Source: an uncultured Alphaproteobacteria bacterium (GTDB lineage: Bacteria > Pseudomonadota > Alphaproteobacteria > Rs-D84). From it: a stretch of DNA of 64,000 nt. Both the position numbers and the translations under genes were made by a program. The stretch is taken from assembly GCA_944389595.1 (NCBI GenBank), contig CALXMY010000002.1, positions 57,913 to 121,912 of the forward strand, written 5' to 3'. Below the pieces are notes generated by a model. It was not told the DNA's origin. It did not search any database and saw only the letters and a program-made list of their open reading frames with translations. Positions 5,347 through 45,170 of the stretch are shown here, one piece after another (within the stretch, counting starts at the first letter, position 1; each line of letters starts with the position of its first letter).

Positions 5347-5356
5347 GGCATATGTC

Positions 5357-6994: not shown

Positions 6995-8069
6995 TATGAC
7001 AACCAAAATGGATTTGTGGTATGCAAAACTGGTCTTTCGCATGGATACGGAAAAACGTATGGCCACGGCGCGGAAATTGGCATCGTTGTTGCGTAATGAT
7101 TTTACTTTGATGGATGCGTTGGGACGGCTGGAATCAATTGAATCGCATGGCGGAAAAAAGCCGAACGAGCCATTTGCAATTGTTATGCGCGAATGGCAAA
7201 AGAATCTGGAACGCGGAATGAGTTTTTCTGATGCAACGCGCGGATGGGTTCCACCCGAAGAAACATTGTTGGTAACATCGGGAAATTTGTCTGATTTGGT
7301 TGTTGCATTGGAAAATGTCAGTCGTGTTGTTGATGGTACAACGCGCATCAGACGCGCCATGACCAGCGCAATTGCATATCCACTGTTTTTGTTATTGTTA
7401 ACATTTGGCATAATTATGATGGTGGGAATTTATTTGGTGCCACCATTGGCCGATATTGCAGGGGACAATGTGATTTGGCGTGGAATGGCGGCATCGCTGA
7501 TATGGTTGTCCGAATTTTCAATAAAATACTGGTATGTAATATTGGGTGGGTTTGCTGCATTAATTGCAATTATTTGGTTCAGTTTGCCAAATTGGACGGG
7601 GCGCATGCGGACACTGTTTGATAAATTGCCGCCGTGGAATGTGTATAAAATTCAAATGTCGGTTGGATGGTTAATGAGTTTGTCGGCAATGGTTGCCGCC
7701 GGAATTACAATACCAGATGCAATGCGTATGTTGGCCGACAGTTCAAATAAATATTTGCGCAATATTTTGGAAGATACGTTGCATTATATTGCAAATGGTG
7801 CAAATTTGGGAAACGCATTGAATAATACGGGACGCGATTTCCCAAGTACTGAAATAATTGGTGATTTGGCAATATATGCCGATATGACGGGGTTTGATGA
7901 AAATTTGTCACGGGTGGCAAATGATTATTTAGAAGAATCTGTGCGTAAAATGGAATCTGTGTCAAATGTATTGAACAGTGCTGGTATTTTATTGGTGTCT
8001 GCGATAATTGCATGGGTGGTATTGGGAACCTTTCAGATGCAGGATCAAATTACATCAGCACTGACATAA
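6963..8069 (+). CDS. type IV filament inner-membrane platform protein (GspF/PilC family)
   Basis: 368 aa. Two T2SS-F-like repeats and three predicted TM helices. The likely true start is MTTKMDLW at about 6996, just after the ATPase stop. Confidence 0.6.
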   Translation: MDCWTDRGCIDMTTKMDLWYAKLVFRMDTEKRMATARKLASLLRNDFTLMDALGRLESIESHGGKKPNEPFAIVMREWQKNLERGMSFSDATRGWVPPEETLLVTSGNLSDLVVALENVSRVVDGTTRIRRAMTSAIAYPLFLLLLTFGIIMMVGIYLVPPLADIAGDNVIWRGMAASLIWLSEFSIKYWYVILGGFAALIAIIWFSLPNWTGRMRTLFDKLPPWNVYKIQMSVGWLMSLSAMVAAGITIPDAMRMLADSSNKYLRNILEDTLHYIANGANLGNALNNTGRDFPSTEIIGDLAIYADMTGFDENLSRVANDYLEESVRKMESVSNVLNSAGILLVSAIIAWVVLGTFQMQDQITSALT

Positions 8070-8710: not shown

Positions 8711-11671
<2,961 letters not shown>

Positions 11672-16530: not shown

Positions 16531-16604
16531 GCCCTAATAGTCTAGTGGTAAAACACGTCCTTGGTAAGGACGAGTCGCAAGTCCGATTCTTGCTTAGGGC
16601 ACCA
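16531..16604 (+). tRNA. tRNA-Thr (GGU anticodon) with a non-canonical T-loop
   Basis: Acceptor GCCCTAA/TTAGGGC. Perfect anticodon arm CGTCC-UUGGUAA-GGACG. T-arm GCAAG-TCCGATT-CTTGC carries C at position 55 instead of U, and there is a D-stem mismatch. Encoded CCA. A TTGATT-16-TATAAT promoter lies at 16491-16518. Confidence 0.6.
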
Positions 16605-18138: not shown

Positions 18139-18364
18139 AGATTGTGTTTATAATAATGATTAACTGGTCTCTATATTGCTCTATCTGTTTATCTGTTAAG
18201 TTTATATTGCCCAGATATTTACGACATTCTGCCACCGACATCGTCGCCATCGCGCCCACCAAAAGGTCTGCGTTTTGGCCTCGGTTTGTGCGTAAGCGAA
18301 AACAATGTTAAACAAATCCTTTATTACATCGGTTCGTGCGATATGTCGTAAAAAGGATTGATTT

Positions 18365-19105
18365 TTATATTTCATTCCATACCTCTGTCAGATTCAAAAT
18401 GAAATTTTTGTTAATCATTTTTTCTTGTGCCATTAATATAATATCGTCAATGCGTGCAATATTACACCGCCCGGCCATATCCATATACAGGTATATATCG
18501 TCTTTATTTTTTGTCTTGTCAAAACAAGTGTATGCAATTTCAAGCAGACTAAAATCTGTGCCTGGTAATTTTACCCGCAGGGATTCTTTCGTTTTTTGTA
18601 ATTTACGAACAGATACCCCAAAATCGCGACAGGCTTTTAATATATGAATATAAGCAATATCAATTTTTGAAAATGTATACCATTTTTCAATATTGCCGCG
18701 CTCGTCAATCAACAATTCTTGTTTGTGTGTCCAATCGTTTAAGCAGCGACTGCTGATAGGAATATCTTGTTTATGAAATTTTTTATCACGCAGGTCATTT
18801 AAGTATCGGGCTTCTGATAAGTTGTCAGAGCAGAACATAAACACATTCATAGATTCATTTGTTAAAACAACGTCGGCCAATCGGTAATCTTTTATCAAAA
18901 CTTGTGCCGGATATTCTTTATATGGGCGGCTGGATATTAGGGTGATGGCTTGTGTTAATTCCGTTGCCAGGTCGCGCAAATCCTGTCCCTTGAATTCAAT
19001 ATTGTGCTTTTTGCTTTTTATCCTCAGAATACCCGATTTTGCGTCAAAGTCTGTACCAGTTGGGTATTCCTTGGAATCGTAGATATGTTCTTGTTTTTTA
19101 TTCAT
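18365..19105 (-). CDS. hypothetical island protein
   Basis: 246-aa ORF. A possible HTH-like segment (SKIDIAYIHILKACRDFGVSVRKL). Preceded by a 20-bp perfect palindrome. Confidence 0.4.
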   Translation of the reverse strand: MNKKQEHIYDSKEYPTGTDFDAKSGILRIKSKKHNIEFKGQDLRDLATELTQAITLISSRPYKEYPAQVLIKDYRLADVVLTNESMNVFMFCSDNLSEARYLNDLRDKKFHKQDIPISSRCLNDWTHKQELLIDERGNIEKWYTFSKIDIAYIHILKACRDFGVSVRKLQKTKESLRVKLPGTDFSLLEIAYTCFDKTKNKDDIYLYMDMAGRCNIARIDDIILMAQEKMINKNFILNLTEVWNEI

Positions 19106-19118
19106 AGCACAACCTTAA

Positions 19119-19138
19119 ATATTACATATATGTAATAT
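19119..19138. promoter_or_regulatory. 20-bp perfect palindrome ATATTACATATATGTAATAT (candidate operator)
   Basis: Exact inverted repeat 14 bp upstream of the start codon of the 246-aa gene. Confidence 0.4.
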
Positions 19139-19374
19139 ATCAAATAAAAAGCCGTTGTAAAGCAATTTTTTTATAAAAAAATCAGCAAATACAATAATGT
19201 ATGCTTAAAATAGCATACATTGTATACCGTAAATTTAATTCGCGACACTTATTTTGATAAAAATCAGCGCTATGCCACGGAATACAAGGCGTTGCGCGGA
19301 AAATTCAAAAAGTCGTTAATATCGCGCATTTTTTATAATGCCCGGAAATCCGCCATTTTATGTCATAGTGTCGT

Positions 19375-19800
19375 CTAATGTGTTTTTATTTCCAGTTTAG
19401 GTCGCTCTTTGTCGGGGTTTTCTGAAAAATCTTTCGCACATTGAATTATTGCTATGTCTACTAAATGCTCGCGTGTTTCTGCAATATTAAATACATTTAC
19501 AATGTTGTGTTTAATCGCTTTATAGACTTGTTTTTCTCTCATAACGGTGTGCATATTGTCGACTACGCATTCACAGAGTTGGTGTGTCAATATGATATTG
19601 TCTAGTGTTGTGGTGCCTTTGGGAACATATTTATCAACGCAGACCGTTCTAACCTTTTCGTCATTCTTAAAAACATCTCTAAAATATTTGTTAACATACT
19701 TATTTCTGGATTCACACATTGCTAGATAATAGGTAATGCAAGATATGAGTGTTAAAGATATCAAACCAAGTGCAATATGAACTAGTATTTTTGTTTTCAT
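19375..19800 (-). CDS. hypothetical secreted/lipoprotein-like island protein
   Basis: 141 aa with an N-terminal signal sequence containing LISC. Confidence 0.4.
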   Translation of the reverse strand: MKTKILVHIALGLISLTLISCITYYLAMCESRNKYVNKYFRDVFKNDEKVRTVCVDKYVPKGTTTLDNIILTHQLCECVVDNMHTVMREKQVYKAIKHNIVNVFNIAETREHLVDIAIIQCAKDFSENPDKERPKLEIKTH

Positions 19801-19844
19801 AATTTATCTCTTTTTTTGGTTCGACAACCTTGTCGATTCAAAAT

Positions 19845-20231
19845 TTATTGACGCTTTTTATCAAAAATTGCCCAAATTATCGCAAACAGCCAAAGTAATA
19901 TCCCCGCCGGTCCCCATACAGAAAAGAATGTCAGCCAGTAAATACCCGTGCTATGTTTTCGATTAAGAAATGTCGCCAGACATACCGGAATCATACCCAT
20001 TGCAAATGCAATCAGTGCTGACAACAGAAAAACAAGACCGGAATCGTCAACCTGTAAATATGCATTCGACCACCCTAGCGCACCGGCGATAATTGCCCCT
20101 ATGCTAACCAACCACCACGCGCTTGCTGGAATTTTGGGTGTGTGCGGTATATTTGATTTTTCAGATTGTGTATTATTTATGCTAACTTTTTCAGACATTT
20201 TCTTACCCCTTTGATATAAAAAGACCGCCAA
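19845..20231 (-). CDS. hypothetical small membrane protein
   Basis: 128 aa with 3 predicted TM helices. Confidence 0.4.
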   Translation of the reverse strand: MAVFLYQRGKKMSEKVSINNTQSEKSNIPHTPKIPASAWWLVSIGAIIAGALGWSNAYLQVDDSGLVFLLSALIAFAMGMIPVCLATFLNRKHSTGIYWLTFFSVWGPAGILLWLFAIIWAIFDKKRQ

Positions 20232-20531
20232 AGGAATGACGGTCGGGTATTTTCAAAATCATAATTGCAATGACCCTGTGGATTTCGGCGAACCTGTTAT
20301 ATAGCCACAGACACCCGACCAAAAGGTCAGGCAAAACAGTGTAAAAAACACCATTATGCTGTCAAAAACGGATAACGATGTTTTCACACCGTGCAATTAT
20401 GGGTTTTGAACGACCCCGAACCCATATCCCTATGGATTCTTAAGCAAGTATTGCTACCGCCTCAATGTAAAATTATATTTTATAAAATATATTTATGCAA
20501 ACATAATTGTATATTTTATTGTTGGGAGTTA

Positions 20532-20981
20532 TTAAATTGTATCAAGTCTTTCTTTAAGATTGGCAATATCGTCTATAATTTTATTACATTTATTTATGTC
20601 TTGACGCCTAGAAGAGGTTTCAAAATTTTTGCCTGTTGTAAGTTCATATATATCATTAAATTGATTTCTAAAATCATAAATTTTTTTTCTAATAGAACTG
20701 AACTTATTGTGAAGATAATTCAAATTTGTTGCAATGTCTTTTTTGCATGATTTAATATTATTTTCTAGCATTAATTGATGTCCTGAAGGAAAAGATATTT
20801 TTCCCCAATACTCGCAACTAAGGGCTCTAAATTCGTCTAAAAGCCCTCTAATTAGAGATAGTCTATTTTCTTTTGCTCCCAATTTTAGTTGGTGCTTTGT
20901 TATAAAAAATGAAACTATTGCAATGCAAAGTTGTGCTATTATTCCAACAACTGTAATCCAATTATCTGTGGTCATGACCAT
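20532..20981 (-). CDS. small membrane-anchored coiled-coil protein (third gene of GHKL/STAS cassette)
   Basis: 149 aa. N-terminal TM helix VVGIIAQLCIAIVSFFI and a charged helical remainder. Lies 4 nt downstream of the STAS-like gene. The region is very AT-rich. Confidence 0.4.
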   Translation of the reverse strand: MVMTTDNWITVVGIIAQLCIAIVSFFITKHQLKLGAKENRLSLIRGLLDEFRALSCEYWGKISFPSGHQLMLENNIKSCKKDIATNLNYLHNKFSSIRKKIYDFRNQFNDIYELTTGKNFETSSRRQDINKCNKIIDDIANLKERLDTI

Positions 20982-20985
20982 TAAA

Positions 20986-21312
20986 TTATTCCTCTACAGA
21001 TTTTTTTATTATATGCCATATTGACGGTTCTAATGTTATGTCGTCATTACAAATAAAGCTTAATTTGCTTTTAATTGTTTCAAATGAAATATTATTTTCT
21101 CTTATAAGACCGCCAAAGGCTTCGTCCCAAAAAGATGCTCCAACACCATCTAAACCATCTAATATAATATTAATATGCTCTACTTTTTTATCATTAAATG
21201 CAGGAAGAATGAATTCTTCTCTGAAGCGTTGTCCAGAAAACTTACCATAACTTCTATACCTTCCAGCTGGTGCTTTATGAAAGTCTTTTGCGATATTAAT
21301 AGTTTTTATCAT
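20986..21312 (-). CDS. small STAS-like protein (DUF4325-like, anti-sigma-antagonist fold candidate)
   Basis: 108 aa. EHINIILDGLDGVGASFWDEAFGGL matches the strand-loop-helix signature of STAS-like/DUF4325 domains. Lies 9 nt downstream of the GHKL gene. Confidence 0.45.
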   Translation of the reverse strand: MIKTINIAKDFHKAPAGRYRSYGKFSGQRFREEFILPAFNDKKVEHINIILDGLDGVGASFWDEAFGGLIRENNISFETIKSKLSFICNDDITLEPSIWHIIKKSVEE

Positions 21313-21321
21313 TTTTTATCC

Positions 21322-22371
21322 TTATATGTTTACCTGCCACTCTATTAGAGTTCCATTTATGCTATGGATTTTGTCGTTTAACTGTTCTTGAATTCCATTT
21401 CCTCTGATATATTCACCTTTATCACTGATTATTCTTACAAATGCACTTTTTTTCAAAGATGTAACATAGTCGATTATTAGAGGCAAGCCATTTCCTCGGT
21501 TCTTTTGATTGGTTTGTGAAATTCCAGCATGTGTAGCCTCTCTAATTTTTGCCGCATCAGACATTCCTAATAGTTTTGTCAATAAGTTTGGCCTTGTTTT
21601 TGGTAATGATTTTGGAATGCCTATGCCTTGGTCAAAAAACATCACATTAAGAGTAGATGTGTTTCGGTTAATTGATGCAGACATCCACCACATTTTTTGT
21701 TTTAATGGGCTACTCATGATAAAATTATCAGGATAACCGTGACTTAACACGTTATCCATAGCTTCGTCAAGAGCGATTTTTAGTTTTTTCTTATTTGGCA
21801 ATACGTCAATAAGGTTACTCAAAGTATCACGAAAAGTTAGGACGTCATCGGGATTAACCAAATTTCCAGACATAAATTTTAAAAATATAACATCCTTTTT
21901 TCTTGGTTCTTTTCCAAATTCTGCAGGAATGTTTTGTATATTTAATAAATCAAACATCCCCATATCGTATAACAAGTATTTTATTTCTTCTTTCCAATTT
22001 TTGAAATCTACAACGTGCAATTTACCGTTTTTGCCTCTTATCCTACGTAATCTATCTAACTCCGAAGTAAAAACTAGCGCACAACCAGGGGTTATAAAAT
22101 CAATACCAGTAAAGTCTATTTTTAAAGAGCACAATGGATCATCTGCACATTGTCTAATATCATTTAGAAAAATTCTGGTTTCTTTATTTGTCAAATCAAG
22201 GCAGGTCGGGGCTTTTAATTTTTTTCTATACGGTGAATGTTTTGCAAGAAATTGACCTTTTTTACGAATTTGTGTTTTTCTTCTGTATAATTTTGCTCTT
22301 TTGCGCAAAAGAAACTGGCGATGTTTCCAGCGTCTTTCTTTGTTATTATTGTTATATTTTTTTATTACCAT
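21322..22371 (-). CDS. GHKL-family ATPase / RsbW-SpoIIAB-like serine kinase with N-terminal STAS-like domain
   Basis: 349 aa. Bergerat-fold motifs: N-box EAMDNVLSHG, G1 FFDQGIGIP (DxGxG) and G2 RGNGLPLI. The N-terminal ~100 aa include IDFTGIDFITPGCALVF, which resembles the STAS beta-strand/loop. Confidence 0.6.
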   Translation of the reverse strand: MVIKKYNNNNKERRWKHRQFLLRKRAKLYRRKTQIRKKGQFLAKHSPYRKKLKAPTCLDLTNKETRIFLNDIRQCADDPLCSLKIDFTGIDFITPGCALVFTSELDRLRRIRGKNGKLHVVDFKNWKEEIKYLLYDMGMFDLLNIQNIPAEFGKEPRKKDVIFLKFMSGNLVNPDDVLTFRDTLSNLIDVLPNKKKLKIALDEAMDNVLSHGYPDNFIMSSPLKQKMWWMSASINRNTSTLNVMFFDQGIGIPKSLPKTRPNLLTKLLGMSDAAKIREATHAGISQTNQKNRGNGLPLIIDYVTSLKKSAFVRIISDKGEYIRGNGIQEQLNDKIHSINGTLIEWQVNI

Positions 22372-22708
22372 TTTGTACTACATTGCATATATAGTATATA
22401 AATAGCTAAATATCAATATAAACAATGAAGAATACATAATGTGTATGTATTCCAATTCTATTTCGGTGTTTTATTGTTAAAATTATTGTTTTTTATAAAT
22501 CCGCCGTTTGCAACTTTACGATAATTCAAAATGCCACTTTCCTTAATAATCCTTGCATTTCGCATTATTTCATTATAAAATCTGTTCCAGTTGTCCCAAC
22601 TTTTATGTAGTAGGGGCACCAGAGTATTTATGAAGTCTTTTCCCGTTTTTAATTGTATTTTTACTATGCTTTTTTTATAATTAATCTGTAAATTACAGGG
22701 GTTATTTT

Positions 22709-23296
22709 ATGGCGGTGGAAGTAAATATCGGCGTTTTTGGTGCCAACGAGGGATTACAAGTCAGTCCTTGTTTTCAAAATAAAACTTATAGAAATACATT
22801 GGTGAATTTATATAACCCGAATGTTACGCATGGCGGGAAACAAATGTTTGTGTTCAAAACCCCGGAAAACGATGTTGTATACGCCATGACCATTGGCAGC
22901 GGCGGCCAAGACAAGTTGTTTTACGGTTTTAATGGCCGTCCGGGTTCTTTTGTTGGGGTTGCATTGGCGATAAAAAATGCGCAATTCAAAGATGTGAATC
23001 AGGCCATGGATATATTGGATTGGGCATATGAAAATAAAATCAAAGGCAATATCATAGAAAGCACAGGCGAAAATAAAAAGTTTGTCATAGACGGATACGA
23101 ATTTTCGGGCGACAAAATACAAAGTTTTATGGATTCTGCCATTGGGGACAGAATAACCCATGTTTGCCAACGTGGCGATTGGGGTACTTTTAAATATAAT
23201 GCCGATACGGATTCCAGGGTGGCAGTATACCGATTTCCATCGGAAAAATCTGATTTAGAAAACGCGATAAAAAAAAATCAAGGAAATGGGCTTTGA
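22709..23296 (+). CDS. hypothetical protein
   Basis: 195-aa ORF with host-like GC content. No recognisable domain. Confidence 0.4.
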   Translation: MAVEVNIGVFGANEGLQVSPCFQNKTYRNTLVNLYNPNVTHGGKQMFVFKTPENDVVYAMTIGSGGQDKLFYGFNGRPGSFVGVALAIKNAQFKDVNQAMDILDWAYENKIKGNIIESTGENKKFVIDGYEFSGDKIQSFMDSAIGDRITHVCQRGDWGTFKYNADTDSRVAVYRFPSEKSDLENAIKKNQGNGL

Positions 23297-23451
23297 CCCA
23301 CATGAAGTGGCCGAATATATTTTGAAAAAACAAAAAGATTTTTAATACTTGCAATTGTGATAATTGCATTATAGAATCCGATTCAGATGGTTCAAAATAT
23401 TATGTTTTGAACATCAGGGAAGATTTATCTTCTGTTCTTTTGTTTTTTTGT

Positions 23452-32304: not shown

Positions 32305-34083
32305 TTATTTTTCCGCACGTTTTAACAGACTTTGCACCGCCAATGGAAAATCAGTGCTGTTTGCCAGATATGATCCGCTGACAATCAAATCCGCCCCGGC
32401 GGCCCAACATTTTTGTGCGGTATCCGCATTTATTCCGCCGTCGACAGATATTAAATATTTTAATCCATATTTTTTTCGTGTTGCGGCCAATACCGAAATT
32501 TTATGCAGACATTTTGAATCAAATTGTTGTCCCGCGGCACCCGGTGTGACCGCCATAATCATTATTTCATCAATTTCGCGCAAAATTGGTTTTAATATTT
32601 CGATTGATGAATCGGGGTTTAATGCCACACCGGCACGTCGGCCCGCACCACGGATTAATCGCAATGCATTGCGAACACCGGATGTATTTGTTGAAACAAT
32701 AATTGTATTTGCCCCGGCGGCAACGGCATCAGCCGCCCATACATCGGGACTTTCGGTCATCAGATGAACATGTAAATGTGCGCGCGTGTGTGCGCGGATG
32801 TATTTTAATTCTGCGATGCTGCCACGTATGTTTTCAACATATAATCCATCCATTATATCAACATGTATCATTGATATTCCGCCCGCGCGAAACATTGAAT
32901 ATGTAATTGGACTTTTCATATCAAAACACAGCGTGCTGGGCAAAACAGGAATAAAACTGATTTGTTTTTTGGGATGCGGATGAAAAACCGCAGTTATACG
33001 ATTGTATATATTGCGTATGCGTGCATGTCGCGCGGTGTATGCATTGCGATGTGTTAATTCGGCATCCCATATATATGTGGACAGTGCCTGAATTGATGCG
33101 GTTGCATGTGCGTTGTGCACGGGAATGCCAAACAGATTTTCAATAAAATCAGATATAAATTCGATTTCCGCCCCACCACCGGAAATAATAATTTTATTGG
33201 GTGTTCGATGTTTAAATGGGGTGGTACAGGCATCCTTTATCTGGGCACACAGGTCAACCATATTTGGAACAATTATATTATTAACATCGGCACGTGAAAA
33301 ATCATATGCGGTATCAGCCGGGGTAAAACGATCCATTTCACGCGGCATCATGGCGGAAACATTACGCTTTATTCGTTCGGCATCATCAAAATTTATGTTT
33401 AATTTTTCCGATATGTCATGCGTTATATCCGTGCCACCAAATGGTATCTTTTGAAAAAAGACCGGGCCATTATCCAACCACATTGAAATACTGGTAAACC
33501 CGGCACCAAAATCTATGTATAATTCCGCGCCTTTTTTGGTATGCATCATTGCGTTTTGTAAAAAATGTGGGTCATAAAAAGAATATGGCTGAATATGCGC
33601 CGCGTGTAATTTTGTTGTTAATTCACTGATTGCATCATTTGAATAAAATATTACGCCGAATATGGCCGTTAATCCGAAATCAGTGTATCCAATTGGGCTG
33701 TATAATTTTTTTACATTTGGTGTTTCATATCGCAACGGAATTATGTGCATTGGAAAAAATTCATCCGGCGGTGTTATTTGGGAAATCATTGAACTGATAT
33801 CAGATTGTGTAATTTTATGTTCGCCCCGCCAATTTTTGGATTTTGGATTTATTTTAAATATCGCGGGGCCAAAATTTCCGGTAATATATGCGTCATCAAA
33901 ATGGTCGCCAATTTGGCGTTCCAATTCATCAATAACAGATTTTATGGCGAAAACAGTATCAAAACTGTCCACTGTGTGCACGGATGATTTTATAATGTGG
34001 CCGGCACGCACACGGTGCGCAATGCCGCGAACGCCACTGGTGCCAATATCAAGACATAAAAAAGATGAATCAGATAAATTCAT
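32305..34083 (-). CDS. ftsA-rpe: in-frame fusion: cell-division protein FtsA (N-terminal ~345 aa) + ribulose-phosphate 3-epimerase (C-terminal ~225 aa)
   Basis: N-terminus LCLDIGTSGVRGIA, KIPFGGTDITHDISEKL...AERIKRNV and IIISGGGAEIEFISDFIENLFGIPV match the FtsA actin fold. The C-terminus carries Rpe metal and catalytic motifs HVDIMDG, HLMT, MAVTPGAAGQQF and ISVDGGIN. The 592-aa reading frame has no stop between the two parts. Confidence 0.7.
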   Translation of the reverse strand: MNLSDSSFLCLDIGTSGVRGIAHRVRAGHIIKSSVHTVDSFDTVFAIKSVIDELERQIGDHFDDAYITGNFGPAIFKINPKSKNWRGEHKITQSDISSMISQITPPDEFFPMHIIPLRYETPNVKKLYSPIGYTDFGLTAIFGVIFYSNDAISELTTKLHAAHIQPYSFYDPHFLQNAMMHTKKGAELYIDFGAGFTSISMWLDNGPVFFQKIPFGGTDITHDISEKLNINFDDAERIKRNVSAMMPREMDRFTPADTAYDFSRADVNNIIVPNMVDLCAQIKDACTTPFKHRTPNKIIISGGGAEIEFISDFIENLFGIPVHNAHATASIQALSTYIWDAELTHRNAYTARHARIRNIYNRITAVFHPHPKKQISFIPVLPSTLCFDMKSPITYSMFRAGGISMIHVDIMDGLYVENIRGSIAELKYIRAHTRAHLHVHLMTESPDVWAADAVAAGANTIIVSTNTSGVRNALRLIRGAGRRAGVALNPDSSIEILKPILREIDEIMIMAVTPGAAGQQFDSKCLHKISVLAATRKKYGLKYLISVDGGINADTAQKCWAAGADLIVSGSYLANSTDFPLAVQSLLKRAEK

Positions 34084-35206: not shown

Positions 35207-35281
35207 ATTTTACATTATAATTTAATTGCCTTTGGGGGGCAATAGTTTTTATAATGGGAAAAGAGAATATAGGAAACGCAT

Positions 35282-35605
35282 ATGGCAATAACTGTTCAGA
35301 ATTTTATAAAATTGGCAAATTTATATAATCAAATTGCAATGATTATGTCGGCAATTTGCGTGCAAAAGGGCGGAATTGATATCGAAAATTATGCGGGCCG
35401 TTTCTTTGCCGCGGATGTTTTGGAATATGTGTATGAATATGGTCGGCGTTTAATGGATGCAAATAAAAATTTGCCGGGGGATGTTGTGGATGTTATAAAT
35501 CGATTTGGCCAGCAATATGAACGGGTCAAGGGATTAACCACGCCAACACAAAAACCATTGTATGAAATGACATTGGATGAATTTGAAAGGGTTATGAATA
35601 TTTGA
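35282..35605 (+). CDS. hypothetical protein
   Basis: 107-aa ORF with no motif. Confidence 0.3.
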   Translation: MAITVQNFIKLANLYNQIAMIMSAICVQKGGIDIENYAGRFFAADVLEYVYEYGRRLMDANKNLPGDVVDVINRFGQQYERVKGLTTPTQKPLYEMTLDEFERVMNI

Positions 35606-35635: not shown

Positions 35636-36982
35636 ATGAAAACAACCAAATATTTATGCAAAATTTTAATTTTGGCTGTTTGGGCGGGACTGGTGTCTGG
35701 TTGCGCACAGCGGCAACAGGAAAATGTGCCACAATATGATACGATAAATGTCGTTGAAAATTTTGTTATTGATGAAAATTCGGTGCCTATTTTCCCGAAA
35801 AAGGCCGCGTTGACAACCGATACCGCACAACGTTTTTCAATTGAATTGCCAAAACGGTGTACTGTTGATTGGGATAATCAGACGGTTGTATCCGTTGTCC
35901 CCGAAGAGCCGATTGAAATGGTGCGTTTGGGAATGGGCGATCAATTACCAGATTTAAAGGTTACAGATTACGAGTTTCGACAGTTAAAGGTCAAAGAGGC
36001 ATTAGATAAACTGTTAGAGGGAACAGAAATTTCAGTAATAGAAGATGGCGAATTGACGGAAACTATATCTGGAACGATTTCATCGGGTAATTTGGCCGAC
36101 AGTGTTGAATTAATGGCGAAAATGGGGCGGTCGTATTATTCGTATGACGCGGTAAATGCCGAAATTCATTTGGATAATCGGGCCAAATGGATGATAAAAA
36201 TGCCAAAAAACGAAACTATAATAATGGCGTTATTGGATGCCATGCATGGGGCGGATGTTCGCAATTTGTTGGTAAACTGGCAGGATAAAACATTGGTGTT
36301 CGAGGGTAATTATCAAACAGAACGCGAGGTTTCAAAAATTATTGCCGATATTGCATCAAAAAAATATATGATTGCATGGGATGTCGATGTATACCGCGTT
36401 TATCCACGTACTGATAATCCGATTATATGGATGAATTTGTTGCCGGCATTCGGTGATAATAATATAAAAATGTCTATTCCCGGTGTGGTGGGGCGTGCGT
36501 TGGTTGTCAGTCCGGAAATAAATACAAAAACATTACAGGAATTTTTATCACAACAGGCAAATGTGGTGCTGATTTCCCAGGGACAATTTTCAATTCCAAA
36601 TGGCTGGCAATCCAGATTTGATATTGGCCAATGCAGCAAAGAGGATCGTTTGGAAACTGATTTGGTAATTGGGGCAACGGGCGTATATGGTGATTATGGC
36701 GGTTATGATAAACTGGATGCGAAAATAGTTCTGCGCACCAGTAACGGTGAATTGGCATCGTTTAATATACCGTCTGATATTGGTGATAATTATGTAATTA
36801 TTGGTATTCCGACACATTCATTTGTAACAACGCCGGAAACGTTAATCAGTCCGTTTGCGGAATTAGTTGTATTTATGTCGCCACGAATAATATCGATTGT
36901 TGATGCAAAAACATTGCCGGTTGGTGCGAATGTGCCTTTGTCAGGGGATGCGTTGCGCGAATTTTTAGGTAATGATTTATAG
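35636..36982 (+). CDS. hypothetical lipoprotein upstream of lolC
   Basis: 448 aa. Signal peptide with lipobox LVSGCAQ. No recognisable domain. Confidence 0.5.
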   Translation: MKTTKYLCKILILAVWAGLVSGCAQRQQENVPQYDTINVVENFVIDENSVPIFPKKAALTTDTAQRFSIELPKRCTVDWDNQTVVSVVPEEPIEMVRLGMGDQLPDLKVTDYEFRQLKVKEALDKLLEGTEISVIEDGELTETISGTISSGNLADSVELMAKMGRSYYSYDAVNAEIHLDNRAKWMIKMPKNETIIMALLDAMHGADVRNLLVNWQDKTLVFEGNYQTEREVSKIIADIASKKYMIAWDVDVYRVYPRTDNPIIWMNLLPAFGDNNIKMSIPGVVGRALVVSPEINTKTLQEFLSQQANVVLISQGQFSIPNGWQSRFDIGQCSKEDRLETDLVIGATGVYGDYGGYDKLDAKIVLRTSNGELASFNIPSDIGDNYVIIGIPTHSFVTTPETLISPFAELVVFMSPRIISIVDAKTLPVGANVPLSGDALREFLGNDL

Positions 36983-36991: not shown

Positions 36992-38245
36992 ATGTTTTCA
37001 AAATTAGAACGCAAGGTTGCATTCAGATATTTAGGCGCGCGCCGCCGCGGATTTGGTTCGGTTATTTCATGGGTGTCACTGATTGGAATAATGTTGGGTG
37101 TGGCAACATTAATTGTTGTTATGTCTGTTATGGGCGGGTTCCATGATACGTTATTGTCGCGAATTGTTGGGATGAATGGTCATGTTGTTGTGTATTACCA
37201 GGACGGCGCAATTCATGATTATGATTTTTTAATCGATAAAATGAAACAGAACAAAATTGTTTCTGAAAATGCGATTGGTATTGTCCCCATTGCCGAGGGC
37301 CAGGTTATGGCAACCGCAAACGGCAACAATACAGGCGCAATGGTGCGGGGAATTCGTATGTCTGATTTGGCGGTCAAAACAGCCACTGGGACAAAAATTT
37401 ATGGAAAGGCATTAGATAAAATTTCCGATGGCGAATTGGTTGCGGGCGCGTCGTTGACACGGGCATTGGGCGTTACAATGGGGGACCAAATTTCATTGGT
37501 TTCGGCAAATAATGCAACACCAACGCCATTTGGTTCAATGCCGCGAATTATGTCGTATCCGGTAATGTCGTCGTTTTTTATGGGAATGTATGAATATGAT
37601 TCTGGGTATATTTTTATGCCATTGGAAACCGCGCAAAAATATTTAAATATTCCGGGTGGGGTGACTCATATTGATTTATTCCTGCGTGACCCCGAGGATA
37701 CAACAGATGTTGCACGTGCATTAACAGATTTATTGCCCGATGGTTTTGTTGTGCGCGATTGGCGTGATTTAAATCGCGGATTTGTTGGTGCGTTACAGGT
37801 GGAATCAAATGTTATGTTTTTGATATTGATGCTGATAATAATTGTTGCGGCATTTAATATTGTGTCCAGTTTGGTCATGTTGGTCAAAGATAAATCAAAA
37901 GATATTGCCGTTTTGCGTACGTTTGGTGTATCGCGGCGTTCCATGATGAAAATATTTATTTTGTCTGGCACCAGTATTGGTATTTTGGGTGCGGCGTTTG
38001 GAACGGTGCTGGGGGTGGTGATTGCGATTTATATTGAACCAATACGTCAATTTTTCCAATGGGCAACGGGACGCGATTTATTCCCGGCCGAATTGTATTA
38101 TTTGTCTGAATTACCGTCAAAGTTAGTGTTGGGTGATGTTGTTGGAATTGCGTTGATTGCGGTGTTGTTAGCATTTTTGGCAACGTTGTATCCAGCATGG
38201 AAGGCCGCCAGTACCGACCCGGTCGAGGTTTTAAGAAATGAATAA
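36992..38245 (+). CDS. lolC: lipoprotein-releasing system transmembrane permease (LolC/LolE, FtsX family)
   Basis: 417 aa. N-terminal TM, a large periplasmic MacB-like domain, and a C-terminal FtsX 3-TM bundle. Ends ...VEVLRNE. Confidence 0.8.
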   Translation: MFSKLERKVAFRYLGARRRGFGSVISWVSLIGIMLGVATLIVVMSVMGGFHDTLLSRIVGMNGHVVVYYQDGAIHDYDFLIDKMKQNKIVSENAIGIVPIAEGQVMATANGNNTGAMVRGIRMSDLAVKTATGTKIYGKALDKISDGELVAGASLTRALGVTMGDQISLVSANNATPTPFGSMPRIMSYPVMSSFFMGMYEYDSGYIFMPLETAQKYLNIPGGVTHIDLFLRDPEDTTDVARALTDLLPDGFVVRDWRDLNRGFVGALQVESNVMFLILMLIIIVAAFNIVSSLVMLVKDKSKDIAVLRTFGVSRRSMMKIFILSGTSIGILGAAFGTVLGVVIAIYIEPIRQFFQWATGRDLFPAELYYLSELPSKLVLGDVVGIALIAVLLAFLATLYPAWKAASTDPVEVLRNE

Positions 38246-38996
38246 AAAACTGGAATTAGTTTTAAGAACGTTGGTATATGACACCGTTGTCCCCGGTGGT
38301 CATTGGTCATCCAGTGCCAAAGATTATCAGGATTTTTTAACGGCACAGGGAATCAAATTACCAATAAAATTATTCCATGAATATAAATATCCAAATAATG
38401 TAACGCCACAGAAATTCGAAGAACAAGTGCGGACATTGTTTTTCTTTTATACGTTCGATGTTGAGCGTATAACCAATCCCCGCGGGTATGCGGAATCTAT
38501 GATAGCCGGGATGGAACGGATGGCGCGGGAAGATAAAAATATTGTGCCATTGACGGAAGAAGAAAAGTTGAATCTGATTAATAAAATGCGTGGTCCGGTT
38601 AAAAATTTGTCTGATGCAGACAAAAATCAATTGGTGGATTATATTCAACAACAACGCAGTACTGTGGTGGCGCAGGTTGCTGATTTATTGTCACAGACGA
38701 TTGAATTAAATCCAGAATTGTTGGATATAAATTGGGAAAATAAAAATCTGCAAGATTTTTTTGAAATTTTGGACGGTGTCAGTTATGGATACGCGCCCAT
38801 GGATATAAAATATTATATCGACAATAAACACGATTTGGCGCGGATAAGAAAAGAACAACGTGAAGAAGAATTTATAAATTTAATTGGTGATGGGCCGCAT
38901 CTGGTTATTCACCCAGACAGAATAAGAATTATGCTGGACGAAATTAAAAAACAAAAAAATTTACAACGTAATATTGAAAGAGGAATGGATTTATAA
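38238..38996 (+). CDS. hypothetical protein inserted between lolC and lolD
   Basis: 252-aa ORF. The start overlaps the lolC stop (ATGAATAA) and its stop abuts the lolD start. No recognisable domain. Confidence 0.45.
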   Translation: MNKKLELVLRTLVYDTVVPGGHWSSSAKDYQDFLTAQGIKLPIKLFHEYKYPNNVTPQKFEEQVRTLFFFYTFDVERITNPRGYAESMIAGMERMAREDKNIVPLTEEEKLNLINKMRGPVKNLSDADKNQLVDYIQQQRSTVVAQVADLLSQTIELNPELLDINWENKNLQDFFEILDGVSYGYAPMDIKYYIDNKHDLARIRKEQREEEFINLIGDGPHLVIHPDRIRIMLDEIKKQKNLQRNIERGMDL

Positions 38997-39712
38997 TGGC
39001 CGGGATATTAAATTCTTTGTCAAAAATAAAGCAGGGCGATGTCGTATTGTCTGTGCGTGATATAAAAAAGACTTTTATCGAAGGCGGTCAACCATTGCAT
39101 ATTTTGCGCGGGGGAGGTTTCGATTTGCGCAGGGGTGAAATTGTTGCGCTGGTTGGTCCATCGGGCAGTGGGAAATCGACATTATTACAATGTGTTGGTT
39201 TGCTGGACAAACCCACCAGTGGCAGTATTTTGTTGTCTGATATACCCGTGCAGAAAATGGATGACGAAATGCGCACATCAATGCGGCGGCGTAAAATTGG
39301 GTTTGTGTATCAGCGGCATAATTTGTTGGCTGATTTTACCGCGTTGGAAAATGTGATGTTGCCTATGTTGGCAAATGGTGTTGATGAACGCGTTGCCAAT
39401 GCACGGGCGTTAAAATTATTGCGGGCGGCAAATGTTGCGCATCGTGCATCACATTTACCGGGCGAAATGTCGGGCGGCGAACAACAACGTACCGCCGTGG
39501 CGCGGGCATTGGCAAATGACCCCGAAATTTTATTGGCCGACGAACCAACGGGCAGTTTGGATCCCGCGCATGCGGCATCTGTGTTTGATTTATTGTTGGA
39601 TTTGGCCCGAAATAAAAAAATGGCTATGTTGTTTGTGACGCATGATATGAATTTGGCTGCACGTGCAGACAGAAAAATAACAATTACAAACGGCATAGTG
39701 GAATCTGTTTAA
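38996..39712 (+). CDS. lolD: lipoprotein-releasing system ATP-binding protein LolD
   Basis: 238 aa. Walker A GPSGSGKST, ABC signature LSGGEQQRTAVARAL, Walker B ILLADEPT, and the LolD-type D-loop. Confidence 0.9.
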   Translation: MAGILNSLSKIKQGDVVLSVRDIKKTFIEGGQPLHILRGGGFDLRRGEIVALVGPSGSGKSTLLQCVGLLDKPTSGSILLSDIPVQKMDDEMRTSMRRRKIGFVYQRHNLLADFTALENVMLPMLANGVDERVANARALKLLRAANVAHRASHLPGEMSGGEQQRTAVARALANDPEILLADEPTGSLDPAHAASVFDLLLDLARNKKMAMLFVTHDMNLAARADRKITITNGIVESV

Positions 39713-39751
39713 AAAAAATAGTATAATATAACTAACCATGGGGGGAGTTTT

Positions 39752-40465
39752 ATGAAAAAAGCAGTTAAAAAAACAAAAGTTGCGCAAAAAGGCGTTAATA
39801 CAAATGGGGTAACAAATTGTTGCAGTCGTTCGCACAGAATATGGGGCGCGGTTGCGTTGGCCGGTTTGTTTGCGTGCGGGCTGATTTTGGGATTGTCATA
39901 TTCTGGGCCAAAAACAACGGAAAATATTGCATTGGATGTTGAACAATGCGATTCAATTGCAAATGAAATTATAAGTATTACGCAACGTGGCGCAAGCGCA
40001 GAAGATGTCGAAACGTTAAAGGAATTAAATACCGCATATACAAATGGTTGTGCGGGGCGTTTGGTTATTATTGAACGCGAATCAATCGCGCCAGTCGCAC
40101 CGAAGCCGGAAATAATGTCAACATGTGCGCGAATTGAACAATTATTAAAACAACGCCTGCGCCCAGAGGATAGTACAGAATATTTTGCACATTTAAGCAA
40201 TGCTGATACGTACAGCACGTTGGCGGACAAGGGGTGTGCAGATAATGCCGATATGTATAAAACATTGGCATTGCGCGAATTGGAAATTGCAACTGCGCTG
40301 CAGCCAACCGAAAATATGGGAATGAATGATGCTGAAATTGTAATTGATACGTTTAAAAAACTGGACATGCAACGCGAGGCACAGGAATTTTTAAATAAAA
40401 TTGAACAATTGATAGATCCGGCAACGGATTTTATCCTGAAAATGGAACAGGTTATAAATGGTTAA
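39752..40465 (+). CDS. membrane-anchored repeat protein, paralogue family A (YGC..N motif)
   Basis: 237 aa. N-terminal TM followed by two repeats of about 60 aa (C..IE...TY..L..GC..N). Clearly paralogous to the ORF at 41392. Confidence 0.5.
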   Translation: MKKAVKKTKVAQKGVNTNGVTNCCSRSHRIWGAVALAGLFACGLILGLSYSGPKTTENIALDVEQCDSIANEIISITQRGASAEDVETLKELNTAYTNGCAGRLVIIERESIAPVAPKPEIMSTCARIEQLLKQRLRPEDSTEYFAHLSNADTYSTLADKGCADNADMYKTLALRELEIATALQPTENMGMNDAEIVIDTFKKLDMQREAQEFLNKIEQLIDPATDFILKMEQVING

Positions 40466-41132
40466 ACTGATATCAAAAATATTATTTGCGATTATAATTT
40501 GCACGCCGGCCATGGCGGCGGATTCGTCTGTTTCCGAACGCCAGGATTGCGATACAATGCAATCGCGAATAAGTGAATTGGCCGCAATTGAATCGCCAAC
40601 GGATGCGCAATCTGACGAGTTGGCAAAATTGCAGGCACAATATCGCACTAATTGTTCGAAGTCTGCGGGTGGGCGGCGTGCCACAACCACCAGCAGAATT
40701 TCCATGGCGACAATGGCGGCCGCCGCCGCAACGCCGGTTGCGGCCCCCACAACGACCAAGGAAACAGTTGTTGTAAATGTTGGCAGTGTTTTAAAAGATT
40801 ATTTGGCCGATTTACAAAAATTGTGTGATGATTTATCCAGCGATATTGAAATGTTGGCGGATAACGGAACATCAGAGGGTGAATTAAAACCATTGCAAAA
40901 CCAATATAATGCCAATTGTAAAGAAATTGATAAATCAAAAACGGCGGAATTAGATGTGGAAACAATCACCAAAAATGTAAATGCCGGCCTGTGCGAGGAT
41001 GGCAGTAAACCAAACAAATTTGGTTGCTGTGGCGATGAAATATTTACCGATATGGGTAATTTGGTGTTTGCCTGTTGTCCGGAAAGTGGCGGCGAATGTC
41101 ATCCACCATTAAATGATGGAAATGCGTTATGA
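40458..41132 (+). CDS. secreted protein with C-terminal 6-Cys motif, paralogue family B
   Basis: 224 aa. Signal peptide and the C-terminal motif FGCCGDEIFTDMGNLVFACCPESGGECHPP. Confidence 0.5.
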   Translation: MVKLISKILFAIIICTPAMAADSSVSERQDCDTMQSRISELAAIESPTDAQSDELAKLQAQYRTNCSKSAGGRRATTTSRISMATMAAAAATPVAAPTTTKETVVVNVGSVLKDYLADLQKLCDDLSSDIEMLADNGTSEGELKPLQNQYNANCKEIDKSKTAELDVETITKNVNAGLCEDGSKPNKFGCCGDEIFTDMGNLVFACCPESGGECHPPLNDGNAL

Positions 41133-41377
41133 AAATAAATTGGAAATTAGTTTTCATCGGCGTTGCATGTTTTATAATTGGTGCCGTTGCGGGATATGGA
41201 ATTGCTGTATATGCCGGAAACAGTGTATATAGCGCAGATTTGGAAATTACGTGTCCGGATAATGGTGTGCCCGATGAAAACGGATGTTGTGCGGGGGAAA
41301 CTTATACAGATATGGGTGGATACGGTTTTAATTGTTGTCCTGATGGCGACGGACCATGTTTCCCGCCAATTAAATAA
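41129..41377 (+). CDS. small membrane-anchored protein with the same 6-Cys motif (family B, short paralogue)
   Basis: 82 aa. N-terminal TM and NGCCAGETYTDMGGYGFNCCPDGDGPCFPP, which aligns with the preceding ORF's C-terminus. Confidence 0.45.
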   Translation: MKINWKLVFIGVACFIIGAVAGYGIAVYAGNSVYSADLEITCPDNGVPDENGCCAGETYTDMGGYGFNCCPDGDGPCFPPIK

Positions 41378-41391
41378 ACAAGGAGAAAAGT

Positions 41392-42213
41392 ATGAGAGAG
41401 AAAAAAACAGGTGTAAATACACAAAGCAAACGCCGTGGTCGTGTGTGGCTGTGGTTATTTATCGTTATTTTGGTAATTTGTGGTGCCGCGACATGGGTGT
41501 TGTATGACGGCGGGGTTATTGGACGTAATGGCGCAATAAATGGCGGCTTTGTTGCGGAAACGGTTGCGGTTGTGCCGGTGGATACAGAAAATGTTGTGGT
41601 GGCGGACGAAACGCATGAAATTAAACCTGCATGTGTTATCATAGAAGAAAGTTTGTTGGGAAATATTGTTAATGACACACACATGGATTACGCGCGTCAA
41701 TACGATGCTGCGCGTACATATTCCGTTTTGGCGCAATATGGTTGTCCCGAAAATGCCCAGTTCTTTACCGATATGGCCATGCGCAGACAGACGATTGCCC
41801 AGGGTTTAGAGGCCGCATATGGCAACAACACAATGACATCGATTGAATACCTGTATTCTGATGAAAAAATTTGTGAAACAATTGAAAAACGTGTGCTGAA
41901 AAACATAGATACCGATGCGGATACTTATGATGAATTTTTACATAATGCGAATACATATGCGGTGTTGTATGAATATGGTTGCCGTGGAAACAAGGCTGCA
42001 TATATGCGCGCAGCGATTCGTGAATTGGGCGTGGCGGTGGCATTAATGCCAACCGATAAAATGAATCGTGATGAAATTGTAACCGTGGTTGAAATTTGCA
42101 AAAATCTGGGGGTGGCCGAGGCAGCACACCTGATGTTGCAACGGTTAAAGGCCCGTGGGTATGATATGGGATTTCTGTTGGAAATGGAAGATATTATACA
42201 CGGAATCCGCTAG
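41392..42213 (+). CDS. membrane-anchored repeat protein, paralogue family A'
   Basis: 273 aa. N-terminal TM, with repeats AARTYSVLAQYGCPENAQFFTDMAMRRQ and NANTYAVLYEYGCRGNKAAYMRAAIRELGVAVALMP that align with the ORF at 39752. Confidence 0.5.
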   Translation: MREKKTGVNTQSKRRGRVWLWLFIVILVICGAATWVLYDGGVIGRNGAINGGFVAETVAVVPVDTENVVVADETHEIKPACVIIEESLLGNIVNDTHMDYARQYDAARTYSVLAQYGCPENAQFFTDMAMRRQTIAQGLEAAYGNNTMTSIEYLYSDEKICETIEKRVLKNIDTDADTYDEFLHNANTYAVLYEYGCRGNKAAYMRAAIRELGVAVALMPTDKMNRDEIVTVVEICKNLGVAEAAHLMLQRLKARGYDMGFLLEMEDIIHGIR

Positions 42214-42849: not shown

Positions 42850-43198
42850 AAACACAAACCGACCGGATGGTCGGTTTTTGTTTTGTGTTGGGACAAAAAT
42901 CTTTTATTTTTTTGTGTGTTTTTGGTACAATTATGGGTGAATCCAGTGGGGACACTGGTTCGGTGCTTTTACATGCCCGCCAAATCCGGTGCAACATGGC
43001 AAGCCGTCGGGAATATGATGTGCTTTCTGTGAAATGCGTCGTTATTTATCACTGACTTGTAAAAGTCGGGGGCTGTTGGTTATACAATACGGGTTCCCCG
43101 AGAGACCAATGGAATCAACGATTTGGTGATTTGTGAACCATCGACCGCCTGATGTCTTTGCTGGGCGGTTTTATAAATGACTATGGGGGTAAAATAAC

Positions 43199-43805: not shown

Positions 43806-45170
43806 ATGAAATGGTATGGGTGTCTTTTAATTGTTGTTTTAATGGTACTGGGGGTGCCGTGTTCTGTATTGGCAGAAACCGAATCTGGGGCCCGGAAAAC
43901 CGATGATACACACGAATTTACTATGACTGCGGTCCAGGCAATGCAATTGGCCGGGGCGATGGTTGAACGTGGTGATATTGAAAATGCGGAACAAATTTTA
44001 ACCAAAACGCCGCCAATGAATAACGCGGCGTTGGAAATAGAACGTTGGTTTTTATTGGCACAAATTGCCACCAGACGTGGCGACATAGACAGCGCGATAG
44101 AAATATATCGTACCATATTAGATGCCCAGCCTGATTTGGCGCGCATTCGTTTCGAATTAGCAGTATGTTATATGCATCAAAAAAAATGGTCGCGTGCCGA
44201 TTATCATATGCGTCTGGCGATGGCTGGTGATGATTTGCCCGAAAATGTGCGTGGTTTAATGAATTATTACAGGTATATCATTCGTCAAAATAAAAATTGG
44301 AATGTGTGGTTTAATTTCAGTGCCGCGCCCGATAATAATATAAATAATGCGGTTGGTGGCCAGGAATGCGTTTATGGTGTTTTTTGTCGTGATTTGCCGG
44401 ATCCTGTATCTGCGATGGGGTATAATTTAACATTGGGCGGAAATTACGAATTTAAATTATCGGATCAATGGCGATGGAAATCTGATGCCAGTGTGTATAG
44501 TAATATTTACGATTTACATGATTATGATGACTTGTTGTTATATGTTAGCACCGGGCCACGGTTTATTTGGTCGCGTGGGGATGTATGGTTGGGGGCACTG
44601 GCAACGCGGCGTTGGTATGGTTGGCGTGGTTATAATTGGGCCGCAGGTGTTCGAATAAATGCTGGTTATGATTTTACGCGTAAATTATCTGGTGGGTTGT
44701 CTTTGCAATATGTGTCGAATCAATATGATGATTATGGCGATTTTTTAAACGGTGGCACATATTCAACAAATATTCATATGGTTTATTCAATTACCCCCAG
44801 TATTTATACTGTTATGCGTGGCGGTATTGCACGTGAGAAAACAATTGCATCCGAATATTCATATTTGATGCCGAATATCAGTATTGGTATTGGGGCCGAA
44901 TTACCGTATGGATTTGGGGTGTATTTTGAACCGAATTTTTATTGGCAGTTATATGATGCGCCACAATGGGTTGTATACGATAATGTATTTGCCCAAATAA
45001 CCGAACATGATTTTACCCAGCGTTATTCAATTTCGATATCAAATAATAAACTGGATGTATGGGGTTTTGTTCCAACTGTTGTTTTCAGCTATACGCGGCG
45101 TGATTCAAATATGTGGCAACGTGAATATGACCGATGGGCAATTGAGTTCACAATGCAGCAACGTTTTTAA
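43806..45170 (+). CDS. outer-membrane protein with N-terminal TPR-like region and C-terminal beta-barrel (DUF560/Slam-like architecture)
   Basis: 454 aa. Signal peptide, helical TPR-like repeats at about aa 40-160, then aromatic-rich alternating strands ending ...FTMQQRF (C-terminal Phe). Confidence 0.4.
   Translation: MKWYGCLLIVVLMVLGVPCSVLAETESGARKTDDTHEFTMTAVQAMQLAGAMVERGDIENAEQILTKTPPMNNAALEIERWFLLAQIATRRGDIDSAIEIYRTILDAQPDLARIRFELAVCYMHQKKWSRADYHMRLAMAGDDLPENVRGLMNYYRYIIRQNKNWNVWFNFSAAPDNNINNAVGGQECVYGVFCRDLPDPVSAMGYNLTLGGNYEFKLSDQWRWKSDASVYSNIYDLHDYDDLLLYVSTGPRFIWSRGDVWLGALATRRWYGWRGYNWAAGVRINAGYDFTRKLSGGLSLQYVSNQYDDYGDFLNGGTYSTNIHMVYSITPSIYTVMRGGIAREKTIASEYSYLMPNISIGIGAELPYGFGVYFEPNFYWQLYDAPQWVVYDNVFAQITEHDFTQRYSISISNNKLDVWGFVPTVVFSYTRRDSNMWQREYDRWAIEFTMQQRF

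Follow-up and report, generated by a model that had tools for sequence, protein, structure and literature searches.

We analysed a 64,000-nucleotide (nt) stretch of DNA, called the window here, which covers positions 57,913-121,912 of the forward strand of contig CALXMY010000002.1 (assembly GCA_944389595.1). Four open reading frames (ORFs) at 39752-42213 on the plus strand start right after lolD, where an initial annotation of the window had placed them. We named them A, B, B' and A'. Judged from their sequences, the encoded proteins are built from three modules: a short ('S') helical hairpin, a long ('L') helical repeat followed by a cap, and a six-cysteine module. The last of these is a mobile and conserved domain without a described relative. 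None of the four proteins has a match in Pfam, NCBIfam, PHROGs or the sequences of the Protein Data Bank (PDB), consistent with the annotation's proposal of a new cysteine-rich extracytoplasmic family. The genes and their main parts are as follows, with lengths in amino acids (aa).

39752-40465, plus strand: gene A, ORF of 237 aa
39818-39823, plus strand: C23-C24 of A, part of a juxtamembrane Cys cluster (A-family alignment)
39947-40051, plus strand: S hairpin of A, C66...C100, helix-turn-helix with a conserved Cys at both ends
40124-40462, plus strand: L repeat of A, C125...C162, with the next helix and the C-terminal helical cap (BLASTP against A', hhalign)
40458-41132, plus strand: gene B, ORF of 224 aa
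40986-41111, plus strand: B-type six-cysteine module, C179, C190, C191, C206, C207, C214
41129-41377, plus strand: gene B', ORF of 82 aa
41252-41359, plus strand: B'-type module, C42...C77
41392-42213, plus strand: gene A', ORF of 273 aa

Modules of the A-type and B-type proteins

A and A' are paralogues, as first annotated. BLASTP aligned them with 32% identity over the C-terminal 113 aa (E = 5e-15) and in a second segment (E = 4e-10). Two internal repeats had been described in both proteins. They are present in A' (E = 1e-8 in self-comparison), but A contains one L repeat and one S hairpin instead. Of the two Cys..Cys units of A, the first does not match the second, which matches both repeats of A' with an hhalign probability of 99%.

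A is a predicted type-II bitopic protein. Its cytoplasmic N-terminus is basic and contains a CC motif (C23, C24); a transmembrane (TM) helix at about 30-50 and a periplasmic domain follow. We found 81 homologues of A, down to 32% identity and none of them named, and the region of the L repeat and cap is the best-conserved part of this family. In A', a basic N-terminus, a TM helix (17-39) and a variable linker (41-77) are followed by L repeat 1 (78-145, C81/C118), L repeat 2 (158-225, C161/C197) and the C-terminal cap (226-273). Repeat 2 and the cap are strongly conserved, with a mean commonest-residue frequency of 0.80-0.86. The AlphaFold2 (AF2) model of A' has a mean predicted local distance difference test (pLDDT) score of 78, above 90 over most of 80-270 and dipping to 58-64 at 141-160. 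The model comprises eleven helices in total, and shows the TM helix at 17-39 and a disordered linker. The three-helix L repeat and the helical cap are predicted to form an alpha-solenoid similar to tetratricopeptide repeats (TPR), with one repeat in A and two in A'.

No TPR or Sel1 family was matched by A or A' in the Pfam scan at E<=1. As a control, a Slam protein encoded downstream matched many TPR models in the same scan. Disulfide-stapled helical-repeat proteins of the TPR/Sel1-like kind are known in the Helicobacter cysteine-rich proteins (Hcp). Compared to TPR and Sel1 repeats, the A-type repeat is longer (~68-80 residues, not 34-44), contains three helices and a C-x35-36-C spacing, and is carried on an N-terminal TM anchor.

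Two further observations concern A. The CC motif belongs to a juxtamembrane cytoplasmic Cys cluster, C-x3-C-CS..HK[IV]WG, which is conserved among A proteins of the Enterousia clade just before the TM helix. The cluster could be a metal or acylation site. In addition, a 219-aa ORF on the minus strand (39709-40368) overlaps gene A. It is likely a shadow ORF, since A is conserved on the plus strand.

B starts with a signal peptide (1-20, AMA↓AD), followed by S hairpin 1 (C31-C66), an Ala/Thr/Pro-rich linker, S hairpin 2 (C122-C154) and the six-cysteine module. The two hairpins match each other (E = 3e-5). B' consists of an N-terminal TM anchor (~6-28), a short linker and the module. The C-terminal six-Cys motif noted earlier in B and B' is recovered by BLASTP (E = 9e-13), with 19 of 40 residues identical (48% over 40 aa). 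Low-complexity composition had been considered as a source of the similarities within the locus, and it does not explain them.

The six-cysteine module has the framework C-x10-CC-x14-CC-x6-C-[FY]PP, with six Cys in about 40 residues. In the B family its pattern is GLCxDGSKPNKFGCCGDExFxDMGNxVFACCPxxGGxC[FY]PP[IL], and the six Cys are invariant across the 74 members. No other region of B is as conserved (mean commonest-residue frequency 0.84 for the module). The AF2 model of B has a mean pLDDT of 67. The hairpins score 80-95, and the module ~70-76 with a short beta-hairpin. The window holds two copies of the module only: searched against 1151 six-frame segments of the window (E<=10), its hidden Markov model (HMM) matched B and B', and did not match A'.

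A profile search of 1.84 billion representative proteins gave 282 matches to the module at E<=1e-3. The pattern C-x6-14-CC-x12-16-CC-x4-9-C is found in 207 of the 224 family proteins retrieved, 24 of which contain two or three copies. In almost all, the last Cys of the last copy lies 4-13 residues from the C-terminus and is followed by [FY]PP[ILM]. Two subtypes can be distinguished, the B-type with KPNKFGCC...F.DMGN.VFACC and the B'-type with PD.NGCC.GE.YTDMG..GFNCC. The B'-type is also located at the C-terminus of proteins with the Pfam TrbI/VirB10 domain. PF03743 (TrbI) scores 53.6-59.5 bits in P0367, P0373 and P0375 (cutoff 35), and 27.2 bits in the N-terminally truncated P0372. The P0367 gene is located after the genes for VirB8 and CagX/VirB9, forming a VirB8-VirB9-VirB10 operon. 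The B'-type module also ends bitopic proteins of 635-852 aa, in which a cytoplasmic domain is joined by a single TM helix to a long periplasmic linker rich in Pro/Ala. The gene for one of these, of 808 aa, is found in two metagenome contigs (L039 5448-7874, L040 561-2987); a GcrA-family gene immediately precedes it, and a gene for a prepilin peptidase (Peptidase_A24) is nearby. No copy of the module was found in the viral contigs of IMG/VR.

Granulin-like stacks and knottins are small disulfide-rich domains with paired Cys, and the knottin framework is C-C-CC-C-C. The six-cysteine module is similar to them in its size (~36-40 residues), its six Cys, its two CC doublets and the beta-hairpin predicted between the doublets. 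However, its C-CC-CC-C arrangement is neither the knottin nor the full granulin pattern, and it is bacterial, predicted to be periplasmic and restricted to one order. A structure search returned no fold match for the module; the query was the full-length, mostly helical B model, in which the module is at the low pLDDT given above.

Profile comparisons indicate that what A and B have in common is a short Cys-x33-35-Cys helical hairpin, present once in A and twice in B. The S hairpin of A aligned to B hairpin 1 with an hhalign probability of 91% (E = 1e-6) and to hairpin 2 with 78%. Across the window, an HMM built only from A-family sequences matched just the two B hairpins (full-sequence E = 4.5e-6). 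In return, an HMM of B hairpin 2 matched the A hairpin (E = 1.3e-3).

The initial annotation had instead joined the A-type and B-type proteins through a 'GC-x(4,5)-F-TDM' core, read as a common ancestral module. Our comparisons do not support this. BLASTP of A or A' against B gave E values of at least 0.67. The B module profile aligned to that of A' repeat 1 with an hhalign probability of 4.4% over 16 columns. Profile comparisons with whole families and with cleaned sub-profiles, and the HMM search of the window described above, agreed. In the AF2 models, the residues in question belong to a long helix of A' (H119-143) and to a beta-hairpin of B (E195-198). The resemblance is a literal coincidence of a few residues. 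Two other apparent profile matches were artefacts and disappeared after cleaning. The match of A hairpin 1 to A' repeat 1 arose from an alignment that held A itself, and that of B hairpin 2 to the six-cysteine module from relatives that carry an internal module at this place.

Conservation of the locus beside lolCE and lolD

Upstream of A, the window contains the following genes.

35282-35605, plus strand: 107-aa protein, upstream of lolCE in the same putative operon
35636-36982, plus strand: 448-aa lipoprotein with lipobox LVSG↓C, directly upstream of lolCE in the same putative operon
36992-38245, plus strand: lolCE/lolF-type permease, TIGR02212 418.9 bits (cutoff 362.45), Pfam MacB_PCD and FtsX
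38996-39712, plus strand: lolD ATPase, best NCBIfam match TIGR02211 LolD, ends 39 nt before A

The permease is a member of TIGR02212, aligned over its full length above the curated cutoff. The ATPase scores 246.2 bits against TIGR02211, below the curated cutoff of 307.75. It was named lolD because TIGR02211 is its best match and because of its place after lolCE. Between the two, a 252-aa ORF (38238-38996, plus strand) overlaps both (-8 and -1 nt) and has no family match and no TM segment.

We compared gene order and identity across 34 related loci, of which 32 reach back to lolCE. The order lolCE-(252-aa ORF)-lolD-A (1-3 copies)-B-(B')-A' is found in all 32; the other two are short contigs with A-B-A'. 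Reading frames, whose conservation the initial annotation had wanted checked, are kept across the 34 loci, B' in the 21 that contain it (41-65% identity). The 252-aa ORF is present in 7 of the 32 (59-92% identity) and is thus a variable insertion inside the lol operon. The genes for the 107-aa protein and the 448-aa lipoprotein are kept in all loci that reach that far (31 and 32 of 34), at median identities of 76% and 84%, and neither product has a family match in Pfam or NCBIfam. The C-terminus of the lipoprotein (...AELVVFMSPRII) is secretin-like by eye only. Profile, PDB and BLASTP comparisons gave no support for a relative of secretins or VirB9.

The four proteins diverge faster than their Lol neighbors. 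Median identity to the window is 89% for lolCE and 88% for lolD, compared to 69% for A, 61% for A', 55% for B' and 50% for B. The divergence is concentrated in linkers.

A tandemly duplicated two-gene module, as initially proposed, does not fit these loci. B' is missing in 13 of the 34, and A' is missing in more distant lineages. The distant relatives L035/L036 and L043 contain lolCE-lolD-A-B without A', and L037 contains lolCE-lolD-A-B and an 80-aa protein composed of a TM helix and the module. In L041, which has the most distant A homologue found (32% identity), lolD-A is followed by a 94-aa protein of the same composition. An A-type protein and a single module-bearing protein, encoded after lolD, thus make up the ancestral unit, since the distant lineages keep only lolD-A and a module protein. 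B' and A' were added later, in the Enterousia clade. Extra copies of A have been added in some genomes. The lolD-A junction is unbroken in all loci compared, even at 32% identity. The downstream edge of the cluster is variable and adjoins an acetyltransferase gene, a recombinase island, LppC or VirD4. In L043, a gene for a VirD4/TraG-type coupling protein (9264-11459, minus strand) is located directly after lolD-A-B on the opposite strand.

The genes are closely packed. The lolD-A and B'-A' junctions measure 39 and 14 nt, and A-B and B-B' overlap (-8 and -4 nt), the B' start and B stop forming ATGA. A Shine-Dalgarno-like GGGGGAG precedes gene A. A promoter-like site is located at 35226-35255, ahead of the 107-aa gene. 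Our terminator scan gave a few weak sites within genes (e.g. 39849 and 41432), and the strongest terminator-like site is a 9-bp bidirectional stem at 42856-42877, beyond tRNA-Gly and tRNA-Tyr. The simplest reading would be a single transcript that covers the 107-aa gene, the 448-aa lipoprotein gene, lolCE, the 252-aa ORF, lolD, A, B, B' and A'.

A scan of species-representative genomes identified 30 loci, all from uncultured gut Alphaproteobacteria and several named Candidatus Enterousia. One is on a 958,618-bp record labelled as a circularised ('circ') chromosome assembly. The window comes from Candidatus Enterousia (order Rs-D84), a gut alphaproteobacterium whose genome is close to 1 Mb. Enterousia are animal-gut bacteria with genomes below 1 Mb. 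Rs-D84 bacteria are described as strictly fermentative and without respiratory chains, and they are predicted to be obligate symbionts or parasites that depend on partner cells (PMC12306168). Our literature search found nothing on the four proteins themselves; for the order, it found that single genomic description.

Other features of the window

A Slam gene (surface lipoprotein assembly modifier, PF04575, 113.9 bits) is located at 43806-45170 on the plus strand, between genes for a histidine phosphatase and LppC. Other genes, or none, occupy this position in the related loci, and the Slam gene is not flanked by any obvious gene for a substrate lipoprotein. On the minus strand, 32305-34083 encodes a 592-aa fusion of an FtsA/PilM-like domain and a C-terminal ribulose-phosphate 3-epimerase domain, which is conserved across related loci.

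A type IVb-pilus-like set at 3387-8069 (plus strand) consists of a PAP_PilO-family protein (R64 PilO type), an unknown protein of 235 aa, a T2SSE ATPase and a T2SSF platform protein. Pili are not mentioned for this order, Rs-D84, in its published description (PMC12306168). A serine recombinase gene (16594-18138, minus strand) abuts tRNA-Thr (16531-16604). It is followed, within 16531-23300, by a low-GC stretch (32-34% compared to ~42%), where ORFs without family matches stand on either side of a gap at 19.1-21.3 kb that contains no ORF of 150 aa or more. The region 16531-23300 is probably an integrated mobile element.

Location and possible roles

A, A' and B' each have a basic N-terminus followed by one hydrophobic helix. 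By the positive-inside rule, they are therefore predicted to have the N-terminus in the cytoplasm and the C-terminus outside it. A and A' are predicted to be inner-membrane proteins, B to be a Sec-exported soluble periplasmic protein, and B' to carry the module on a membrane anchor. A signal peptidase I site, AxA↓[DE], is found in all 74 members of the B family. We considered B as a lipoprotein and Lol substrate and rejected this. A Cys in the hydrophobic region of the signal peptide is present in only 47 of the 74, in varied contexts and with no consistent lipobox ([LVI][ASTVI][GAS]C), and B of the window has the non-canonical IIIC. A periplasmic location fits better than surface exposure, because of the membrane anchors of A, A' and B', the Sec signal of B, the conservation of the module, and its tethering to inner-membrane proteins (VirB10) elsewhere.

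From the architecture and the gene order, we infer an inner-membrane-anchored periplasmic scaffold that is co-transcribed with Lol and whose module docks on a conserved envelope partner. We favor this reading tentatively, with somewhat less than even confidence. The A-type helical-repeat domains would hold B through its hairpins. Near the outer membrane, the six-cysteine module would dock on a conserved partner, which may be a protein, peptidoglycan or lipopolysaccharide. Such a scaffold or tether of A, A', B and B' would be expressed along with the Lol machinery and act in the assembly or integrity of the envelope. The paired conserved Cys would most simply be disulfide staples. In relatives, the same module is the C-terminal, periplasmic tip of VirB10/TrbI and of the long bitopic proteins.

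Several points weigh against such a scaffold. It is drawn from architecture and gene order. The whole region is syntenic in these small genomes, so adjacency to lol says less about functional coupling here than it would in a larger genome with more rearrangement. The AF2 confidence in the module is only ~70-76. In addition, the classical DsbA/DsbB pathway may be missing, since Rs-D84 bacteria are reported to have no respiratory chains (PMC12306168), and the Cys may then bind metal. The readings considered below and the scaffold are not all mutually exclusive.

The four proteins may instead be secreted or surface interaction proteins, such as adhesins, toxin- or bacteriocin-like proteins or proteins for contact with partner cells or the host, with the module as an extracellular binding domain. 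The initial annotation had suggested an adhesin, a bacteriocin-like protein or a role in host interaction. Small domains rich in disulfides are a typical feature of extracellular proteins. VirB10 homologues end in the module, and some VirB10-like proteins, such as CagY, are partly surface-exposed. MacB-type ABC transporters of E. coli, which are related to LolCDE, export a cysteine-rich enterotoxin. The fast divergence of the four genes relative to their housekeeping neighbors and the variable copy number (A 1-3, B' present or absent) would also fit, as would the predicted life of Rs-D84 as obligate symbionts or parasites in contact with other cells (PMC12306168). However, A, A' and B' have N-terminal inner-membrane anchors, and B has a Sec signal only, with no lipobox or outer-membrane targeting feature. 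Within B, the module is conserved most strongly and is not diversifying, and the LolCE protein is a bona fide TIGR02212 member and not a peptide exporter. The hallmarks of class II bacteriocins (a double-glycine leader, a C39 peptidase-ABC exporter and an immunity gene) were not found nearby; B carries a Sec-type signal, and the neighboring ABC transporter is LolCE/LolD. In addition, no copy of the module was found in viral contigs. We consider a surface or secreted role unlikely.

A second unlikely reading takes the adjacency to lol as incidental. The four would be unrelated lineage-specific envelope proteins, neighbors of lol only because small genomes rarely rearrange. The region from ftsA to beyond the cluster is indeed syntenic across the order, and some proteins with the module are encoded far from lol. 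However, the downstream boundary varies while the lolD-A junction never breaks, even in the most distant locus, and the genes, all on one strand, overlap or are separated by short gaps, and no strong terminator interrupts them.

The Cys could also be metal or redox ligands, in a periplasmic metal-handling system or a thiol-redox relay. This is doubtful. The Cys pairs of the hairpins and repeats are located exactly at both ends of helical hairpins (C-x33-36-C), which is the geometry of a staple. Every module has an even number of Cys, we found no His/Met ligand motif and no match to a metal-binding family, and a structural role is more plausible for the module on VirB10. What speaks for ligands is the invariance of the CC doublets with conserved Asp/Glu nearby, and the lack of any dsb gene found within the 64-kb window. 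The lineage is strictly fermentative without respiratory chains, and DsbB-type oxidation may be absent (PMC12306168).

Systems comparable to the locus are known. In Brucella, a TPR-containing protein, TtpA, works with a disulfide-containing protein, EipB, a pairing to which A and B can be likened; these are alphaproteobacterial, lineage-restricted and periplasmic, as the proteins here are or are predicted to be (bioRxiv 10.1101/551135). By analogy, the two pairs may be the same kind of accessory envelope system. The authors of the EipB study discuss a possible link to lipoprotein trafficking, and the text consulted contains no mention of eipB or ttpA being adjacent to lolCDE (bioRxiv 10.1101/551135). 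The pairs are not homologous: as described there, EipB is a 14-stranded beta-spiral (DUF1849) and TtpA a canonical TPR protein, whereas B is composed of helical hairpins and a small Cys-rich domain.

A second comparison concerns the Lol transporter itself. MacA, EnvC and LolA are periplasmic partners of MacB-fold type VII ABC transporters, being encoded together with the transporter or acting on its periplasmic domain. Alpha-helical hairpins or coiled coils serve this purpose in MacA and EnvC. A and B are also helical-hairpin proteins encoded with a MacB-fold transporter, and A is membrane-anchored as MacA is. However, Pfam and NCBIfam gave no match to the HlyD/membrane fusion protein (MFP), EnvC/peptidase M23, LolA or LolB families. 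A and B have no lipoyl or beta-barrel domains of MacA, no LytM domain of EnvC and no beta-barrel of LolA, and are not members of the MFP family; the models are helical (A') or helical with a tiny beta module (B). These nearest analogues, like those of the single modules, are analogues only and not relatives. Modelled on EnvC with FtsEX and MacA with MacB, a reading of A and B, with B' and A', as dedicated periplasmic partners of the mechanotransducer LolCE/LolD, this lineage's single type VII ABC transporter, is very unlikely. The Cys-stapled hairpins would engage the periplasmic domain of the transporter, with the module docking at the outer membrane.

If that partnership were true, it would represent an undescribed route of trans-envelope lipoprotein delivery or outer-membrane tethering in Alphaproteobacteria, whose docking module would also have been co-opted by the type IV secretion system. 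More generally, if the coupling to Lol is functional, the locus bears on how outer-membrane components are delivered or anchored in Alphaproteobacteria, which to our knowledge lack LolB. Without a Lol link, the locus still contributes well-delimited new modules and a conserved protein pair, one member A-type and the other bearing the module. Rs-D84 bacteria are uncultured, genome-reduced and probably partner-dependent, and their membrane proteins are almost all uncharacterised. The six-cysteine module is clean, strongly conserved and mobile, and is therefore well suited to a new family entry and to structure determination. Since it is reused in Lol-adjacent proteins, VirB10 and long bitopic proteins, it marks the envelope of Rs-D84.

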